A DNA stretch of 64,000 bases from Promethearchaeia archaeon (GCA_029856145.1 JAHQWK010000001.1:576001-640000); one strand, 5' to 3'; counted from the stretch's first letter, positions 25,888 to 33,470 are shown. Notes: a model not told the origin generated them from the letters alone. Translations and numbers: made by a program.

Positions 25888-27891
25888 ATGGCTTATTTCA
25901 AGAATATAGTATTGGTCAAGGCGGAAGGAAATTATTTTGATGCTAGCTTTTTTGAAGCAAACATTCCTCTTTGTTATCTTAGCGCAGTCATAAAAGATCA
26001 CGTGAATTCTGTTACAATGCCTATGGATATGCGTATAGATCTTAGACCATTTGAAAAATATGAAAATCATTTAGTAAAAATGGAAAAAGGAGGTGGGAAA
26101 TGTGATCTTGTAGGAATTTCAACTATGACAGCATCATTTCCCAACGCAATAATACTTGCTAGAATAGCAAAAAAACATGGTGCTTATGTTGTTGTGGGAG
26201 GTTATCATCCTTCTGCTCTTCCTGAAGCAATGTTTAATGTCCCAGAAATTGATGCTGTTGTTCGTGGAGAAGGAGAAATGACTTTAAAAGAACTTGTTCT
26301 AAACGGTCCTTCAACCTTCGTTAAAGGATTGAGCTTTAGGGATGAAAATGGGATTATTTGTCATAATCAGGACCGTGAAAGGATAATGCATCTCGACTCG
26401 TTACCATTTCCAGATAGGAATTTGCGTCCAGAGAACCCTATCTTTAATAAACACGAAGTCGTAGTTACATCACGCGGTTGTAATGGTACTTGTACATTTT
26501 GTGCAAATGATGCTGTACACGGTCGATGGCGAGGTCGTTCCCCAGAAAATGTTGTTGCAGAATTGAAAATGCTACAAAAAAAACACCCAGACTTATCTAC
26601 AGTCCATATATGGGACGCAAATTTTATGCAAGACAGCGAGAGAGTCGCTAAAATCATTAATCTCATCAAAGAAAACAAAATTTACTTCAAATATTTCTGT
26701 GAAATGCGCGTAGATCACATAACTAAACACCCCGATTTAATCAAAAGATTAGCAGAAATAGGAATGGAGTGGATAGCAATTGGTATTGAAAGTCCGTATC
26801 AAGAGCGTTTGAAAAAATTAAAAAAAGGGATTACTACTTTTGCCGTGGAAAAGGCTATCGAAATATTGAAGGAGAACAAAATTAAAATTGTAGGATATTT
26901 AATGATAGGCGATCCGGACGAGACAATGGAGCAAGTGAAGGAGTATCCCGTATATGCAACGAGAGTTGGCATAGATAAGATCATGTTAGCCATACAGACA
27001 CCACATCCAGGAAGCTTATTGTTTAAGGAGATGGCTAAGGAAGGAGCCATAACGTCATATCAATGGGAGAAATACGATATAGGTCATTCAGTAGCAAAAT
27101 TGAAAAATATGACGAATCATGAATGTGAGGTTCTCATGGATTGGTGTTGGGGAAAATATTATAGCCCTGAATGGGCGTTTTCCCGAGAGAGATCGCTAAA
27201 AGAAGCATTTTTTCGATATTTGTCCTTTGTTTGGATTGGTTATCCTGGTTTTTTTATTCACGCACGTTCTAGAGAGACTGTTGAAGAAAATTTAAGAGCA
27301 TATATCTCAGCAATGCAAGGTTATTATGATTTAAGCAAGTATGAATATACAGATGCAGATTATCTCGATGATCTAAGGGGGTATAATTTTCAATTGACTT
27401 TTCGTTTCAGTAATGGAGATGATATTTCTTTGTTAGCTTCAATAGATAAAAACAGCAAGCTAGTGATTGAAATATTTAATGGAAAAAGAAAAGATGTATT
27501 TCTCGATTTTACACTTAATTCAAGTGATTTCATTGATATTCTTAAATCCTTACCCTTACAAATTATTTCGCTCGTACATTGGGCGGGGTTTAATTTTAAC
27601 AACTTGAAAGCAAACATTCATGTCTTTAAGACTTTCTTGTCTATGGTTGCAAAAGCAGTTCGATTGAACACGATAAATTATAAAAAATTAACAAAATATT
27701 TAGTTGTAGGAACAAAATTTCTTCCTAAAAAATTATATGAACTAATCAGAGAAGAAATTCCAATTTTCAACAATAAAAAGAAAAGTGAAGTATATGAAGA
27801 TAATTACATGAAAGCTATAACAAACTCGGTTAGAAATGTTTTATATAAAGTAATACTGTTCCCTTTCACAATTCTCGTTCCTGTTGACTGA
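25888..27891 (+). CDS. Cobalamin-binding radical SAM protein with C-terminal extension (possibly SCP2-like)
   Basis: VGIS, VVVGGYHPS, VVRGEGE (B12 domain); TSRGCNGTCTFC; GIES; TPHPGS. Confidence 0.88.
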   Translation: MAYFKNIVLVKAEGNYFDASFFEANIPLCYLSAVIKDHVNSVTMPMDMRIDLRPFEKYENHLVKMEKGGGKCDLVGISTMTASFPNAIILARIAKKHGAYVVVGGYHPSALPEAMFNVPEIDAVVRGEGEMTLKELVLNGPSTFVKGLSFRDENGIICHNQDRERIMHLDSLPFPDRNLRPENPIFNKHEVVVTSRGCNGTCTFCANDAVHGRWRGRSPENVVAELKMLQKKHPDLSTVHIWDANFMQDSERVAKIINLIKENKIYFKYFCEMRVDHITKHPDLIKRLAEIGMEWIAIGIESPYQERLKKLKKGITTFAVEKAIEILKENKIKIVGYLMIGDPDETMEQVKEYPVYATRVGIDKIMLAIQTPHPGSLLFKEMAKEGAITSYQWEKYDIGHSVAKLKNMTNHECEVLMDWCWGKYYSPEWAFSRERSLKEAFFRYLSFVWIGYPGFFIHARSRETVEENLRAYISAMQGYYDLSKYEYTDADYLDDLRGYNFQLTFRFSNGDDISLLASIDKNSKLVIEIFNGKRKDVFLDFTLNSSDFIDILKSLPLQIISLVHWAGFNFNNLKANIHVFKTFLSMVAKAVRLNTINYKKLTKYLVVGTKFLPKKLYELIREEIPIFNNKKKSEVYEDNYMKAITNSVRNVLYKVILFPFTILVPVD

Positions 27892-28158: not shown

Positions 28159-28719
28159 TTATTCAGTTTGAAGTCGTTCTCCCAATTTATAATAATTGAA
28201 GTCACCTCCAGTAGTCCAAATAATTGGATGTATCTTCCTCCAATCGAGCTTGACGTTATCCTCTTCCTTAATAGTGTATTGTTGATTTACATAAGATTTA
28301 ATTACCTTACCAATAATTCCTTCACCATCGCCATAGTCGAGGATTTCATGTACTTCACATTCTATATTTACTGGACATTCACGAATCATTGGGGCTGTTT
28401 TTAATTCTCCGTAAAAATTATCAAAGAGGGAACTTTTATCAATATCCCGTCCAGATTTACTTCCACAAATATTTGTTTTTTCCACGAGATCCTCTGAAGG
28501 GATATTTACACTAAAGGTCATATTCTCATGAATTCCGATTGTAGTATAGCGTGTTGGAGATAAACTGAAGAAAATATACTTGCCAAAATCAAATGGACAG
28601 CTATACCCAATTACCAGATAATTAGGCTTATTATATACATTTGCTCCTACCAAAATCACTGGTAGTGGACTGAGAAGATTTCCTTCAACAATTTGTTTAT
28701 TTAAATTTACTTCTTTCAT
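28159..28719 (-). CDS. Flavin reductase-like (flavoredoxin) protein
   Basis: PLPVILVGA, FSVNIP, CG..SGR..DK, APMI.ECPVNIEC. Confidence 0.85.
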   Translation of the reverse strand: MKEVNLNKQIVEGNLLSPLPVILVGANVYNKPNYLVIGYSCPFDFGKYIFFSLSPTRYTTIGIHENMTFSVNIPSEDLVEKTNICGSKSGRDIDKSSLFDNFYGELKTAPMIRECPVNIECEVHEILDYGDGEGIIGKVIKSYVNQQYTIKEEDNVKLDWRKIHPIIWTTGGDFNYYKLGERLQTE

Positions 28720-28732
28720 TTTTGATTATTTT

Positions 28733-29392
28733 TTATAGTTTTTTTACAATATAGTCAAGGATACAGGTACGTCCTGTATTGAAATAATTTCCTTGCATGA
28801 TATGCCTTTTTTCTTTATAAATTATCTCAAAATCTTTACAATATTTGTCAGGTTCATCATCATCATAAAAACTATGAAGAAACTTTCCATTACCTTCTAT
28901 AGTTATAACTTCACCTGGGTTTTGTTCTATTCCATTACCATAATGATTATCGTCCTTCGAAAGGAAGTTTATATAACAAAGTCCCTCTTTTTTCAGCACT
29001 CTATACATTTCTTTGATGGCAATTCCACTATCAATCTTATTTAAATGAAAAATAGAATTATAAGAAAATACAAAACTAAAAAAATTAGACTCAAATGGTA
29101 TTTTTCTCATATCAGCTTTAATAATTTTTAGTTTTATTCCATTTTCTTCACAATACTCATTAGAATAGTTAATAGAATCTTCCGAAATATCAATTCCATA
29201 AGTTTCAAATCCATTCTCATGAAAAAATGCAAGCTTAGGATTTGAACCACCAGCTCCACAATCTAAAATTTTTTTTTCTAAAGGCACTGAATTCGTGAAT
29301 CTAAGGAAATTATACAATGAAGAGGGATAAAAATTCTGGATCATTTTCCATAAATACCTCATATCTGTTAGTTTTTTAATAATATTTTTCAT
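28733..29392 (-). CDS. Class I SAM-dependent methyltransferase
   Basis: ILDCGAGG, GID, ADMR.IPF, RVLKKEG. Confidence 0.85.
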   Translation of the reverse strand: MKNIIKKLTDMRYLWKMIQNFYPSSLYNFLRFTNSVPLEKKILDCGAGGSNPKLAFFHENGFETYGIDISEDSINYSNEYCEENGIKLKIIKADMRKIPFESNFFSFVFSYNSIFHLNKIDSGIAIKEMYRVLKKEGLCYINFLSKDDNHYGNGIEQNPGEVITIEGNGKFLHSFYDDDEPDKYCKDFEIIYKEKRHIMQGNYFNTGRTCILDYIVKKL

Positions 29393-29970
29393 GAAGTTTT
29401 ATACTTTTTACCAATCTCAAATGCGGGGGCAAGTTTTTCGCCAACTTTCCAATAATTGTTCAGTGAATATGTATAGGTTTTTAGTTTAGCAATGTCTGGT
29501 ATCCCTTCTGTTAAATATTCCTCATCTGCATAAGCATTTACTACTTTTCCGATAAAAATTTCATGACCTTCCTCGATCTCCACTAATTCCTTTATCTTAA
29601 AGCTTTTAACCAACTCACATTCAAGATTTAGAGGTGAGAGACTAACCATTGGTGCTGTTTTAAGATCCCCGTAAAAAACATCAAATACTTCTGATTTATC
29701 TATTTCTTTTCCTGAAACTATGCCACAATAATCAATCATTTCTGCCAAATCTTCTGAGGGTGTATTAACGCTAAATGTTTCATTTTCCTTAATACCAATA
29801 TTAGTATAATGAGTTTCGTAAGAAGCTATTGAAATTAATGGTGGTTGACTTTCGACAATGCCGACATATGCAAGTGTCTCAAAATTCGGTTTTTCATTCA
29901 CATTTGCCCCGATAAGAGCAACTGGCATAGGAAATAAATAAGCTCTTGGAGGAATTTTATTTTTCTTCAT
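29389..29970 (-). CDS. Flavin reductase-like (flavoredoxin) protein, paralog of 28159-28719
   Basis: PMPVALIGA, FSVNTP, CG..SG..DKS, APMV..SPLNLEC, HEIFIG. Confidence 0.85.
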   Translation of the reverse strand: MKKNKIPPRAYLFPMPVALIGANVNEKPNFETLAYVGIVESQPPLISIASYETHYTNIGIKENETFSVNTPSEDLAEMIDYCGIVSGKEIDKSEVFDVFYGDLKTAPMVSLSPLNLECELVKSFKIKELVEIEEGHEIFIGKVVNAYADEEYLTEGIPDIAKLKTYTYSLNNYWKVGEKLAPAFEIGKKYKTS

Positions 29971-30112
29971 TATATCACACTTTTAAGATCTATGTATAGA
30001 ATAGGATTTGATAACATAAATAGATGAAATTCTTGAACTTAGAACGAACTTTAAACTTATTTTCTAATTTTAAACTATAATTTATCACTGAATTGGAATA
30101 TAAAATGAAATG

Positions 30113-30475
30113 TTAGCCACAACAACCAGTATTTGAATTATCTTCACTGGTTGGTCCACAGCCACATGAATTTTCAATCGCTTTACCTTTTTTTGCATTT
30201 TTAGCTACACCTCTCGCATTCCACAAACATCCACACCCTTTTCGTTCATTCAAGATAATTGCTTGAGTTGGGCAATTTCTCTTACAAGCACTGCATTCTG
30301 TACATAGCTCAGGTCTTGGTATTTCATATTTTCCAGAACTATGGGGTTGTGGAAGTCCAAATGGGCACACTTCAGCACATAGACCACAGCCATTACACAC
30401 ATCTTTATCAATAAAGATTAAAATATCTTTAACAAATTCAGTAAAATCAAATGATTCAAAATTTGTTTCTGTCAT
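30113..30475 (-). CDS. hgcB: HgcB-like 2[4Fe-4S] ferredoxin with Cys-rich tail
   Basis: CNGCGLCAEVCP and CTECSACKRNCP (HgcB consensus C[M/I]ECGAC), then GCGC and terminal CC; directly downstream of the hgcA-like gene; GGAGG SD. Confidence 0.75.
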   Translation of the reverse strand: MTETNFESFDFTEFVKDILIFIDKDVCNGCGLCAEVCPFGLPQPHSSGKYEIPRPELCTECSACKRNCPTQAIILNERKGCGCLWNARGVAKNAKKGKAIENSCGCGPTSEDNSNTGCCG

Positions 30476-30513
30476 TTTACTTACCTCCTATTTATGTACA
30501 TCTTTTATTTTTT

Positions 30514-32187
30514 TTAAATATATATGGAAAATAAAAATCCTAAAGCTAGAAAAATCAAACTTAGGACAAATAAAATCTTATTAATTAAATTAAAAATTGG
30601 ATATTCCTCTTGGATTTCTCTTGGGCTTGTAGCCATTGTGTAACCACTAAATGACATTATTGAAAAGAATGTAATCCAAAAATAAAAGCATAATTGCCAG
30701 AGAGTATAAAATATGGAGTTATGGATCAAATAAGACAATCCTCCCAAGAAAATTATATTAATTATCCCAAAAAAAATACCTTTAAAAATAAATCTCCTAG
30801 TGAATCTTGAAATTGGGAATAACAGCGCAATAATAAAATTTGATATAATTATCCAAAGCGATAGCTCACCAATCCACCATAACTTGTTAAACCAAGTTAG
30901 GATCGAGAATAGTAGAACTAATCCAATTAGAGGTAGGATAAATATTTTTCGAAATAAAAATGATGTATGAGTTATTCCCCCACGAATTCGATGGAATAAT
31001 GTAAATTTAGCTAATTTCATTCGGTCAGGTTTTTGAGCAGGATTTTCATCAAGAAATTGAGGTATAGATTTTGACCAAACTGGTCCGTATTTAACTCTAA
31101 AAGGGAATTTTTCTGAATTCTTCGGAAGTTGAGGTATAGCTACACCTCCAGCTGAAAGTTGTGGCAGTAATAATGTTTTTTTTTGAGTTATATTTTTTAT
31201 CCCTGTTGCTTCTATTGCCTCAAGAAGTTGCATATTTCCAAAATCATTACCACGAGCGGCACACCATACATTTATGCCGTTTGAATCAATACACAATACC
31301 CACGCATCAAGTCCTTTAAGATCACGCATCACCTTAATATAAGTAAATTCATAATTAGCGGTGACAATTATAGGCGATTTTTCATTAGGATTTCCAGATT
31401 GATAAATCCCGGGTTCGATAGGAACACGATCAACTTGTCCAGTGAAAATACAACGATAAATTCTTAATTGAGATCGAAGTCCCTTAAATCTCTTTATTTC
31501 GGGCCTATAATACCCCGGTTCATTAGTTCCCTTATCATTAATTTTTTGTAGTTCTATCGCTTGGATTGATCCATGCTTCCATTTTATCTGAGTATTGATT
31601 TTAAAACCGATTGGGTCTAAATATTTAAGAAACCACTTAACAAGATAAGTACTTTTTAAACGTAAACGTCTTAATTTCTTTTTATACCGCCATCTTTTAA
31701 ACTTAAACAGTAACTTCCAAAATCCAGAGGGAAAAAATTCAGCGGCTAAAATTAAACGACCATTTGGTTTCAATGATTTCCATACGTTTCTAAGAAATAA
31801 TTGCTGTTCTAAAGGACGAAGTTCAGATAACATAAATTTACTTACTACAATATCTTGAGAACCGTCTGGTGTTGGTAAATCGGTAAATGAACCTGTTTGA
31901 TATAATAGTTTTCCACCAGATAAATCCGTTGGATAATTCTTCATAGCATAATCAATCATTTGAAAGTTTCTGTCAATTGCAATTACATTATTCCCTTTTT
32001 GCACCATTTTTGAAGCAAGCAAGCCTGTACCGCATCCAATTTCTAATATAGATTCGGAACTATTAATTCGATTTATAATCCAGTTCTGAACTTCAATATT
32101 TACTCCTTTTGTTAAGGCAGTAAATTTAGAATCGTAAGTTTCTGGCTCTTCTTCTAGTTTTCGCATATAAACGACGGCCATAAGCAA
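30514..32187 (-). CDS. hgcA: Fusion of a class I SAM methyltransferase and an HgcA-like corrinoid membrane protein
   Basis: N-terminal LEIGCGTG; then EPGIY..GNP...SPIIVTANY, GINVWCAARGNDFG cap helix, LPQLSAGGV, YGPV and about 5 TM helices; ATG at 32181 is an alternative start. Confidence 0.78.
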   Translation of the reverse strand: MLMAVVYMRKLEEEPETYDSKFTALTKGVNIEVQNWIINRINSSESILEIGCGTGLLASKMVQKGNNVIAIDRNFQMIDYAMKNYPTDLSGGKLLYQTGSFTDLPTPDGSQDIVVSKFMLSELRPLEQQLFLRNVWKSLKPNGRLILAAEFFPSGFWKLLFKFKRWRYKKKLRRLRLKSTYLVKWFLKYLDPIGFKINTQIKWKHGSIQAIELQKINDKGTNEPGYYRPEIKRFKGLRSQLRIYRCIFTGQVDRVPIEPGIYQSGNPNEKSPIIVTANYEFTYIKVMRDLKGLDAWVLCIDSNGINVWCAARGNDFGNMQLLEAIEATGIKNITQKKTLLLPQLSAGGVAIPQLPKNSEKFPFRVKYGPVWSKSIPQFLDENPAQKPDRMKLAKFTLFHRIRGGITHTSFLFRKIFILPLIGLVLLFSILTWFNKLWWIGELSLWIIISNFIIALLFPISRFTRRFIFKGIFFGIINIIFLGGLSYLIHNSIFYTLWQLCFYFWITFFSIMSFSGYTMATSPREIQEEYPIFNLINKILFVLSLIFLALGFLFSIYI

Positions 32188-32249
32188 ACACTCTATTATT
32201 AATACATTAATTTTTATTTTAAAACACTTGAAATATTAAAGAGATCAAT

Positions 32250-32819
32250 TTATTTTTGTAGTAGTTTTGCTGTTTTTAGAATATTGAATCCAAGAATTTC
32301 TGCTTGTTTTAACCGGTTTTCTTGGTTTAAAATATCACCTGGCTTGTCAGCAACAGCTTTTACCCCATGTAATTCACCAGGAACACATATAATTCCACAT
32401 GAGAGCATCCATGCATGAATGGCATTAATTGTTATTGCTTGACCTCCCGATGTTCCATTACCAACCGCGATAGCTCCTCCTACTTTCCCTTCTAAAGGTT
32501 TTTTGACCTTTACCGCATAATGTCTATCAAGTAAGGAGAGTAATTGAGCACTAACATTTAGGTAATAAACAGGACTTGAGATTATAATTGCATTACACCA
32601 TCGAAACGCATCATAAATCTCTTGCATATCGTCATTAATAATACAAGTACCAGTTTCCCTACATGAGTCGCAGGCATTACAAGGTTTAATTTCTAATTCG
32701 CTTAAAAGGAAAATTTTAACATTCCATGCATTATTTTCAAAAGGTTTTAGAGCATATCTTAGGAGGAGTTCACTATTCCCTTTCTTCCTAGGAGTCCCTG
32801 ATATACCAATAACATTCAT
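32250..32819 (-). CDS. Iron-sulfur flavoprotein / NADPH-dependent FMN reductase (flavodoxin-like)
   Basis: GTPRKKGNS, CNACDSC....C, SPVY. Confidence 0.85.
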   Translation of the reverse strand: MNVIGISGTPRKKGNSELLLRYALKPFENNAWNVKIFLLSELEIKPCNACDSCRETGTCIINDDMQEIYDAFRWCNAIIISSPVYYLNVSAQLLSLLDRHYAVKVKKPLEGKVGGAIAVGNGTSGGQAITINAIHAWMLSCGIICVPGELHGVKAVADKPGDILNQENRLKQAEILGFNILKTAKLLQK

Positions 32820-32902
32820 TCTTTTTCACACTTAATAATAACTTTATTATTATAATCCTCTTTAGCGCCTTCGGAACAACAACTTTGATCTTTATCTCCC
32901 AT
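32816..32902 (-). CDS. 28-aa Cys-containing upstream mini-ORF (MGDKDQSCCSEGAKEDYNNKVIIKCEKE)
   Basis: ATG at 32902; its TGA overlaps the ATG of the flavoprotein gene (ATGA). Confidence 0.4.
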   Translation of the reverse strand: MGDKDQSCCSEGAKEDYNNKVIIKCEKE

Positions 32903-32969
32903 TTTTTATTGCCTCTTTAATTCATTTTTAAATTTTATTTTTAAGCTATTGAAGTACTAATAGAATGTA

Positions 32970-32993
32970 TCACATAAAAATATTTCGATGTGA
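32970..32993. promoter_or_regulatory. Imperfect 24-bp palindrome, candidate ArsR/SmtB operator
   Basis: TCACATAAAAATATTTCGATGTGA, 10 of 12 positions pair; lies between the divergent arsR-like gene and the hgc-like operon. Confidence 0.55.
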
Positions 32994-33077
32994 ATTTAGA
33001 TTTATAAATATGAATAAAATTTTTATAATTTCATTCCTTCTATTATAGTAACAATACAAAAATACAATGATATTTAG

Positions 33078-33470
33078 ATGAAAGTAGAAAGAAAGAAAGA
33101 AATTAAAGACACATTATGTGGATGCAATGATTGTTCTAATGGTGATACATACTTCGAACGCCTACAACAAATTGGAAAAGCTCTAAAATTTGATCAAAAA
33201 TTAAATTCGCTGTCAACATTTTTTAATGCTTTAGGAAACAAGGAACGTTTAACTATACTGACAGCATTAAAGAATAAAGAACGTTGTGTATGTGAACTAG
33301 AAGCGATCTTAGATAAATCTCAACCTTCAATTTCTCACCACCTTCGAGAACTAGAAAAAGTGGGCTTGATTCGAGGGTGGAAAAAAGGGAAATATACCTA
33401 CTATACCTTATTAAAAAAAGAATTTGAAATGTATTTGGCAAATTTTAATCAAGAATTTAGTTTTGAATAA
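33078..33470 (+). CDS. arsR: ArsR/SmtB family metalloregulator
   Basis: F.AL....RL.IL, CVCEL metal box, SQPSISHHL..L; extra N-terminal CGCNDC. Confidence 0.88.
   Translation: MKVERKKEIKDTLCGCNDCSNGDTYFERLQQIGKALKFDQKLNSLSTFFNALGNKERLTILTALKNKERCVCELEAILDKSQPSISHHLRELEKVGLIRGWKKGKYTYYTLLKKEFEMYLANFNQEFSFE

Follow-up and report, generated by a model that had tools for sequence, protein, structure and literature searches.

Within a stretch of 64,000 nucleotides from a Promethearchaeia archaeon (GCA_029856145.1, JAHQWK010000001.1:576001-640000; here called the window, at its full length), which lies in contig C9 of the 3.55-Mb Asgard genome G000, a run of seven minus-strand genes encodes a S-adenosylmethionine (SAM) methyltransferase fused to a corrinoid protein resembling HgcA of mercury methylation, followed by an HgcB-like ferredoxin, with an arsR gene lying divergently beside the run. 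Comparative analysis revealed that this fusion and ferredoxin under a cysteine-rich ArsR are real and are kept across Asgard loci. Judged from sequence, the evidence leans towards a SAM- and cobamide-dependent metalloid methylase under a thiol-rich ArsR as the identity of this conserved core, with arsenic as the most likely substrate. In relatives, the pair is found in ArsR-ACR3 operons, in one case with ArsM, and the protein falls outside the canonical HgcA clade; therefore, arsenic or a similar metalloid would be a more likely substrate than mercury, which narrows a choice (mercury, arsenic or another) that the sequence-only reading of this DNA had left open. Read from 32902 to 28159, the seven genes encode a cysteine-rich mini-open reading frame (mini-ORF), an iron-sulfur flavoprotein (Isf), the fusion, the ferredoxin, a flavin reductase-like protein (FlR1), a second SAM methyltransferase (MT2) and a second flavin reductase-like protein (FlR2). 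The sequence-only reading had given this gene order and description correctly: every ORF was confirmed, and the domain assignments hold in Pfam and NCBIfam scans.

The methyltransferase–HgcA-like fusion and its ferredoxin partner

The fusion gene (30514-32187, minus strand, as are all the features of the run) is an ORF of 557 residues matching Methyltransf_11/25 and CdhD (PF03599). Its start is probably the ATG at 32181, which gives 555 residues, as in a 100%-identical database protein (P0001). Residues 1-213 (31543-32181) form a class I SAM methyltransferase domain, whose best NCBIfam match is CpaM (NF043040, "corrinoid protein-associated methyltransferase"); the score of 136.8 bits is below the cut-off of 180, the aligned region spans nearly the whole profile (positions 2-215 of 216), and relatives in the clade score 259-287 bits. 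On the ArsM model (NF008823), the domain reaches only 34.7 bits, and the ArsM Cys signature is absent. The GxGxG SAM motif is invariant in 33 fused sequences from archaea and bacteria, in which the acidic residue D70 is at least 90% conserved. The HgcA-like corrinoid-binding domain follows at residues 232-392 (31006-31488; PF03599, 54.6 bits) and is homologous to PDB 2h9a, 4c1n and 4djd (E-values of 1e-8 to 3e-4). Residues 255-544 match the HgcA and HgcAB-like models about equally, with 167.8 bits on NF040863 (cut-off 275) and 170.8 bits on NF043039 (cut-off 285), the latter match ending at profile position 255 of 350. The cap-helix motif NVWCAARG (31249-31272), inside the HgcA-like domain, reads NVWCAARGNDF in full, so that the GK of the canonical motif N(V/I)WCA(A/G)GK is replaced by RGN. 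Among the 33 fused proteins, N304, V305, C307 and A309 show no variation, and conservation is at least 90% for W306 and A308. The 12 closest Loki-type sequences all share the RGN that follows; it becomes RGG or RGD in more distant ones, and Thor-type fusions read RG(I/V/T)H at this position.

An AlphaFold2 model of the fusion, built on the 33-sequence alignment, had a pLDDT of 89.1 and a pTM of 0.86. It places a transmembrane domain of five helices (residues 395-427, 431-458, 464-487, 490-514 and 520-554) at residues 393-555 (30517-31005). The top Foldseek match of the model is the published HgcAB model 9a0b_A, with 341 aligned columns, and the N-terminal half matches SAM methyltransferases. 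By its scores below the cut-offs, its altered cap helix and its placement in a sister clade described below, the fusion protein is judged not to be a canonical HgcA.

The ferredoxin (30113-30475, 120 residues) contains two [4Fe-4S] motifs of the CX2CX2CX3C type, CNGCGLCAEVCP and CTECSACKRNCP. Its best NCBIfam match is HgcB (NF040864), with 50.7 bits against a cut-off of 99. A GCGC motif occupies the place of the canonical HgcB GVGC (the Cys73 position), and the Cys-rich tail terminates in GCCG. The HgcB features are thereby present as a set: two clusters, a Cys after the second cluster, a C-terminal Cys pair and a gene adjoining an hgcA-like gene. The Cys at the Cys73 position and the C-terminal CC are kept in Loki- and Thor-type homologs, i.e., the HgcB Cys positions required for mercury methylation are retained in the Asgard proteins, and this retained tail points to a thiophilic substrate. 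The partner ferredoxins of Chloroflexota fusions have neither the Cys73-position Cys nor the C-terminal CC.

The fusion gave 954 database matches at E ≤ 0.001, of which the top 120, with 65-100% identity, are about 550 residues long; the closest homologs come from Promethearchaeota, Loki-, Hermod- and Hod-labelled metagenome-assembled genomes (MAGs). A survey of 400 Asgard genomes found matches in 276 at E ≤ 1e-10, a tally that includes methyltransferase-only and CdhE-type matches; the full-length matches listed fall in most genomes of the family of the window and in several other families. Thor-type full-length fusions are about 30-35% identical to that of the window. Full-length fusions sharing the N-terminal signature MAVxxMxxLExxPxxYD occur in Thorarchaeota, Chloroflexota/Anaerolineae, Poribacteria and Desulfobacteraceae. 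In a second group of Loki-type fusion paralogs, with 63-66% identity (noted at L011:5210-5674, L012:5143-5607 and L015:5208-5672), a MarR-family regulator bearing a pair of Cys residues at its N-terminus is found upstream and a conserved protein of 108 residues downstream.

Phylogenetic analysis of 110 HgcA-type domains (IQ-TREE quick search, LG+G4; unrooted, built without a CdhE outgroup) separated 76 canonical unfused representatives, mostly with NVWCAAGKG, from the other 34 rows with an SH-aLRT support of 100. The fusion of the window falls in the 34-row sister clade, outside the canonical HgcA clade, in which the validated strains are unlabelled. A methyltransferase fusion is carried by 30 of the 34 rows. 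Three of the exceptions (P0122, P0123 and P0125) are unfused, shorter and devoid of the full N-terminal domain, and are probably truncated gene calls; the remaining row, an HgcAB-like fusion protein, is placed next to a triple fusion. A matching division into two clades was obtained by Lin et al. 2023, who assigned Asgard sequences to the "fused-HgcAB" subtree and removed the first 327 columns of their alignment (PMC10083202).

Three architectures were found for the same parts. A stand-alone CpaM (282 bits) adjoins an HgcAB-like fusion (398 bits) in the Asgard locus L101, both over their cut-offs; a CpaM-HgcA fusion with a separate ferredoxin gene occurs in the window, in Thor-type loci and in Chloroflexota; and a single chain CpaM-HgcA-HgcB is represented by L043. 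Such triple fusions, of 591 residues, were found in Desulfobacteraceae MAGs (L025:152-1924 and L043:1523-3295), and that of L043 is over both NCBIfam cut-offs. The occurrence of the three parts in three fusion architectures suggests that methyltransferase, corrinoid protein and ferredoxin act together.

Regulator, candidate operator and linkage to arsenic genes

The genes of the window were compared by tblastn with 100 related loci, in which the Loki-type set comprises 29 distinct loci. As the fusion and ferredoxin genes are adjacent in nearly every locus with a readable downstream region, and ArsR is commonly near them, the gene arrangement is not a matter of chance. ArsR is present in 20 of the 29 Loki-type loci, several of the others being cut short on the upstream side, and most Thor-type loci have it immediately ahead of the fusion on the same strand. 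ACR3 is the next gene upstream of the fusion, and co-oriented with it, in 12 of these 29 Loki-type loci (TIGR00832, 278-295 bits, cut-off 282.8), and in one genome (L017/L093) ArsM lies between ACR3 and the fusion (347 bits, cut-off 263). Canonical hgcAB loci sampled likewise had ArsR in 10 of 41, ACR3 in three and ArsM in two, in line with the published observation that hgcAB and ars genes occur together (bioRxiv 10.1101/2022.10.17.512643). The ACR3-type operons continue after HgcB with a Cys-rich protein, CysRich (L093:9023-9412, L094:9139-9597 and L089:9114-9434), and then a 117-residue protein, P117. In CysRich, a low-complexity series of CC motifs at the N-terminus is combined with a VDIYVPLDACACEW domain at the C-terminus. 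Neither protein had a match in Pfam or NCBIfam; in the protein atlas, CysRich gave a weak thioredoxin-like lead and P117 no match. CysRich could be an ArsD-like chaperone.

The ArsR of the window (33078-33470, plus strand, 130 residues) is a winged-helix, helix-turn-helix protein of the ArsR/SmtB family, scoring 77.5 bits on NF033788 (cut-off 55) and 59 bits on HTH_5. It contains CGCNDC at residues 16-21 and CVCEL in α3. The CVCE in α3 is invariant in all Loki- and Thor-type ArsRs adjoining the fusion, and nearly all of them carry a Cys cluster at the N-terminus (LCxCxxC or KAPCC). The combination of CVC with such a cluster typifies regulators that sense thiophilic metals, and the conservation of both argues for a thiolate metal(loid) site. 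A SahR-like regulator, i.e., a Cys-free sensor of S-adenosylhomocysteine (SAH), was considered and rejected, as the CVC and N-terminal Cys residues are conserved.

In the divergent intergenic region, an inverted repeat, TCACAT-N12-ATGTGA (32970-32993, without strand), is a candidate ArsR operator. The palindrome is kept about 108 nucleotides upstream of the arsR start codon in relatives, and its fourth arm position covaries, being C:G in the window, T:A in L008 and L087, and A:T in L089, L092, L005 and L007. The same element is present in the ACR3-type operons of relatives, and a similar one occurs at the ACR3 locus of G000 itself. ArsR and the candidate operator are orthologous between the ACR3 operons of relatives and the window, so that the operon of the window has its regulator and operator in common with genuine ars operons. 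Operon partners, regulator and operator thus point to arsenic or a related metalloid as the substrate.

The arsenic genes of G000 lie apart from the fusion. Pfam and NCBIfam scans found no ACR3, ArsM, ArsC or ArsA in the operon of the window. An ACR3 gene (291 bits) is located 437 kb away on the same contig, at a locus (L103, C9:167344-171300) where a divergent ArsR paralog and ACR3 are joined by genes for a 98-residue, thioredoxin-like "DACACEW" protein and a homolog of P117, and by a YdjM-like gene. On its upstream side, this locus has the neighbour that the ACR3-fusion operons of relatives have, and exactly the fusion-HgcB pair is missing between ACR3 and the 98-residue CysRich-type gene, where a gap of 266 nucleotides is found. 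No ArsM over the cut-off was detected in G000, the best matches being generic methyltransferases (61 bits against 263).

In MAGs of Deltaproteobacteria, Smithella and Lentisphaerae (L051, L075 and L082), HgcA-type genes match the corrinoid domain only (residues 250-400), at a higher identity of 42-44%; they adjoin ArsR, and two of the three also adjoin ACR3.

Accessory genes and the mosaic structure of the locus

The sequence-only reading had taken the whole run as a self-contained corrinoid metal(loid)-methylation system. This holds in part: across Asgard genomes, conservation is confined to ArsR, the fusion and HgcB, which the synteny comparison bore out, and the seven genes are no conserved unit. 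The genes for Isf, the CC mini-peptide, the flavin reductases and MT2 are additions specific to particular lineages and lie outside the conserved machine; their products may provide electrons, guard against oxidants or buffer metal.

The first gene of the run is a mini-ORF for an acidic, Cys-rich peptide of 28 residues (32816-32902; MGDKDQSCCSEGAKEDYNNKVIIKCEKE), whose TGA stop overlaps the ATG start of Isf (ATGA), an arrangement of translational coupling. Homologs of 25-36 residues precede Isf in all seven fetched loci with Isf and the fusion, the window included, and in two of seven Isf loci that do not adjoin a fusion, with the consensus M.DK..CC.EE...Q....CC. As homologs precede Isf in the fusion loci, the mini-ORF is taken to be a real, conserved micro-protein gene. 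Members of this acidic peptide family, with CC near both termini (e.g., MGDKDKDCCAEEPKNDDEESQSKEGCC), lie just upstream of Isf; copies were located at L121:1223-1306, L121:2078-2161, L122-L126, L130, L131 and L008:5231-5314. Genome G195 has two copies, one on each side of Isf, and the C-terminal CC has been lost in the copy of the window.

Isf (32250-32819, 189 residues; FMN_red, PF03358, 103 bits) contains the motif CNACDSCRETGTC, of the form CX2CX2CX5C, and thereby has the features that define Isf-type proteins. At least 11 genomes of the genus have it immediately ahead of the fusion, and it is absent beside the closest fusion homologs. Assignment of the Isf-like protein as ArsH was rejected, as no ArsH model matched it in the NCBIfam scan. 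FlR1 (29389-29970, 193 residues) and its paralogue FlR2 (28159-28719, 186 residues) match Flavin_Reduct (PF01613) with 79.6 and 65.2 bits. They follow HgcB in seven relatives, all with 80-86% fusion identity. An 86%-identical copy of the pair occurs in an unrelated context (L112, G261:C16:19783-23355) in a genome of another genus whose own fusion is only 68% identical to that of the window, which suggests that the FlR1-FlR2 pair is mobile or recently transferred. Between them lies MT2 (28733-29392, 219 residues; Methyltransf_11, 63.2 bits), a class I SAM methyltransferase that matched no NCBIfam model over its cut-off and whose start overlaps the FlR1 stop by 4 nucleotides. Among fusion loci elsewhere, MT2 was found only in L086, and a weak match lies beside the canonical hgcA locus L080.

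The locus of the window has a mosaic structure. Its ArsR, mini-ORF and Isf are 91-95% identical to those of "type B" loci (G194 and G195), the fusion of which is only 68% identical. For its fusion, HgcB, FlR1, MT2 and FlR2, and for the SIS and Fumble genes at its flanks, the match is with "type A" loci, which have no Isf, at 84-90%. By these identities, the locus looks like a chimera of two locus types of the genus. Because an artefact would need two switches, cassette exchange between the locus types is the more likely origin and an assembly chimera the less likely one.

These observations bear on the view that all seven genes form a dedicated system, in which Isf and the flavin reductases would be the donors that regenerate Co(I) and MT2 would carry out a second methylation step. 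All genes are co-oriented with short gaps or 4-nucleotide overlaps, and the position of Isf ahead of the fusion and of the flavin reductases after HgcB recurs within the genus-level group. Outside this group, however, none of the accessory genes accompany the fusion, and CysRich and P117 occupy that position in ACR3-type operons. The occurrence of the FlR1-FlR2 pair in an unrelated context, the single other fusion locus with MT2, the chimeric composition of the locus and a possible separate promoter ahead of FlR1 also speak against such a system. It is therefore regarded as unlikely, and a metalloid methylase confined to ArsR, the fusion and HgcB is preferred.

Convergent with the operon, a B12-binding radical SAM enzyme of 667 residues is encoded at 25888-27891 (plus strand). 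Weak radical SAM homologs (24-31% identity) lie 1.3-2.4 kb from the fusion-ferredoxin pair in L099, a distant Thor-like Asgard locus, and in L023 from Poribacteria. As the family is large, this proximity may be due to chance.

Proposed chemistry, acceptor and significance

From the domain content, we infer the following reaction scheme. The CpaM-type domain of the fusion would bind SAM and methylate a Co(I) cobamide held by the HgcA-like domain, in which Cys307 of NVWCAARG would serve as the lower ligand and the five helices would provide the membrane anchor. The HgcB-like ferredoxin would give low-potential electrons to make or restore Co(I), and its GCGC motif and C-terminal Cys-Cys would present the thiophilic metal(loid). 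The methyl group would then pass from CH3-Co(III) to the substrate, most likely As(III) or a related metalloid, and the methylated product would leave the cell or be exported. ArsR is predicted to sit on TCACAT-N12-ATGTGA and to be released once the metalloid binds at the site formed by its CVC and N-terminal Cys residues. Experiments on purified canonical HgcAB showed that the methyl group derives from SAM via CH3-cob(III)alamin with Cys ligation (PMC11588087), chemistry that the fused CpaM domain fits.

Four known systems resemble the core in part. The closest is the set of CpaM and HgcAB-like (NF043039) proteins, which has the same domains (a SAM methyltransferase, a Cys-on corrinoid and membrane domain, and a two-cluster ferredoxin), the same clade and the same N-terminal signature. 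In the window, however, methyltransferase and HgcA part form one protein and the ferredoxin has a gene of its own, the scores are below both cut-offs (136.8/180 and 170.8/285), and an HgcB-type Cys tail, missing from the single-chain forms, is retained in this separate ferredoxin. Our literature search found no relevant paper on CpaM and no published function for CpaM or HgcAB-like proteins, the association of which is so far recorded only as uncharacterised NCBIfam models; nor did it find a paper on the fusion in Asgard ars operons (hgcA with acr3, arsM or Lokiarchaeota). A PNAS paper of 2024 makes no mention of fusions or of a SAM-binding site. The novel elements of this case are an ancestral ars operon divided in two, the chimeric locus, the covarying candidate operator and the conserved mini-peptide.

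HgcA and HgcB (NF040863 and NF040864; Parks et al. 2013, as cited in PMC11588087) share with the core the corrinoid domain, the cap-helix Cys, the five transmembrane helices, an adjacent two-cluster ferredoxin with the Cys73-position Cys and C-terminal CC, an upstream ArsR and SAM as the likely donor. The fusion differs in its sister-clade placement, in NVWCAARGN instead of NVWCAAGKGTF, in the additional N-terminal methyltransferase and in its sub-cut-off scores, and it is found far more often inside arsenic operons than the canonical hgcAB loci sampled (ACR3 in 3 of 41). ArsM resembles the core in its use of SAM and in its position after ACR3 under ArsR, and it is absent from G000. The chemistry proposed for the core would, in contrast, be cobamide-mediated and ferredoxin-dependent, the ArsM Cys signature is lacking, and L093 has both genes. 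AcsC/CdhE, the large subunit of the corrinoid iron-sulfur protein of the acetyl-CoA pathway, has a homologous corrinoid-binding domain (PF03599). The fusion lacks its [4Fe-4S] N-terminal domain and its CdhD partner and is set apart by a predicted Cys lower ligand, a membrane domain and a fused SAM methyltransferase instead of a methyl-H4folate methyltransferase partner.

Several points weigh against arsenic methylation by the core. CVC-site regulators of the ArsR family also sense Cd, Pb, Zn or Hg. At the MarR-linked paralog loci there is no ArsR, ACR3 or other ars gene, and in G000 ACR3 lies outside the operon of the window. In L093, a second arsenic methylase seems redundant because ArsM is in the same operon. 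The need for a CpaM domain is unexplained, since purified canonical HgcAB uses SAM without a fused methyltransferase. Pseudodesulfovibrio mercurii ND132, which has canonical HgcAB, formed no detectable mono- or dimethylarsenicals (bioRxiv 10.1101/2022.10.17.512643). The run itself is interrupted by a 142-nucleotide gap before FlR1, with a TATA-like element about 25 nucleotides ahead of the FlR1 start, and the last three genes (FlR1, MT2 and FlR2) are possibly on a separate transcript.

The acceptor could also be other than a metal. The cobamide would then pass the methyl group of SAM to an organic or cellular target, or the system would serve SAM/SAH homeostasis under a SahR-like ArsR. The native function of HgcAB is unknown, the hgcAB-linked ArsR of ND132 responds also to SAH, the partner ferredoxins of Chloroflexota have no metal-binding Cys tail, and one Loki-type paralog group is associated with MarR and not with ars genes. 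In Loki- and Thor-type loci, however, the CVC and N-terminal Cys cluster of ArsR are conserved, the vicinal Cys pair is kept in the Asgard HgcB tails, and the pair is directly linked to ACR3 and ArsM, which makes a non-metal acceptor quite improbable.

Marginally less probable still is a true mercury methylase, with Hg(II) as the physiological substrate and ArsR as a mere Hg(II) sensor: the Co-ligating Cys, the five-helix membrane domain and the Cys residues of the ferredoxin are all kept, ArsR-family regulators precede hgcAB in known mercury methylators (PMC10349881; bioRxiv 10.1101/2022.10.17.512643) and Lin et al. 2023 include Asgard sequences among hgcA homologs (PMC10083202), but the HgcA and HgcB scores are below the cut-offs (167.8 against 275 and 50.7 against 99 bits), the cap helix has RGN in place of GK, the protein is separated from the canonical clade by the split with SH-aLRT 100, the operon partners in relatives are arsenic and not mer genes, and the HgcAB fusion from Pyrococcus furiosus, the only tested member of the sister clade named in PMC10083202, did not methylate mercury, as cited there.

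The preferred reading, a metalloid methylase, would have consequences for the HgcAB superfamily, the native function of which is a long-standing open question; SAM as the donor was called unexpected in 2024. Found in archaea and bacteria, the three fusion architectures are an independent comparative argument for SAM loading of the cobamide as a trait general to the superfamily. The position of the pair behind an arsenite pump, with an arsenic-type repressor and operator, yields a concrete and testable substrate hypothesis, namely arsenic or a related metalloid. Surveys of hgcA that use strict motif or hidden Markov model cut-offs miss the fusion clade, and looser ones may miscount it as mercury methylators. 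More tentatively, it is conceivable that in Asgard archaea and the wider CpaM/HgcA-like clade a SAM-loaded, cobamide-dependent enzyme of the HgcAB type carries out anaerobic metalloid methylation independent of ArsM, and that this was the ancestral task of the superfamily, with mercury methylation as a derived or side activity. If arsenic or a related metalloid is indeed the substrate, the frequent linkage of hgcAB to ars genes would be explained, and a cobamide-dependent pathway of arsenic methylation would be added in anoxic sediments through the abundant Asgard archaea.

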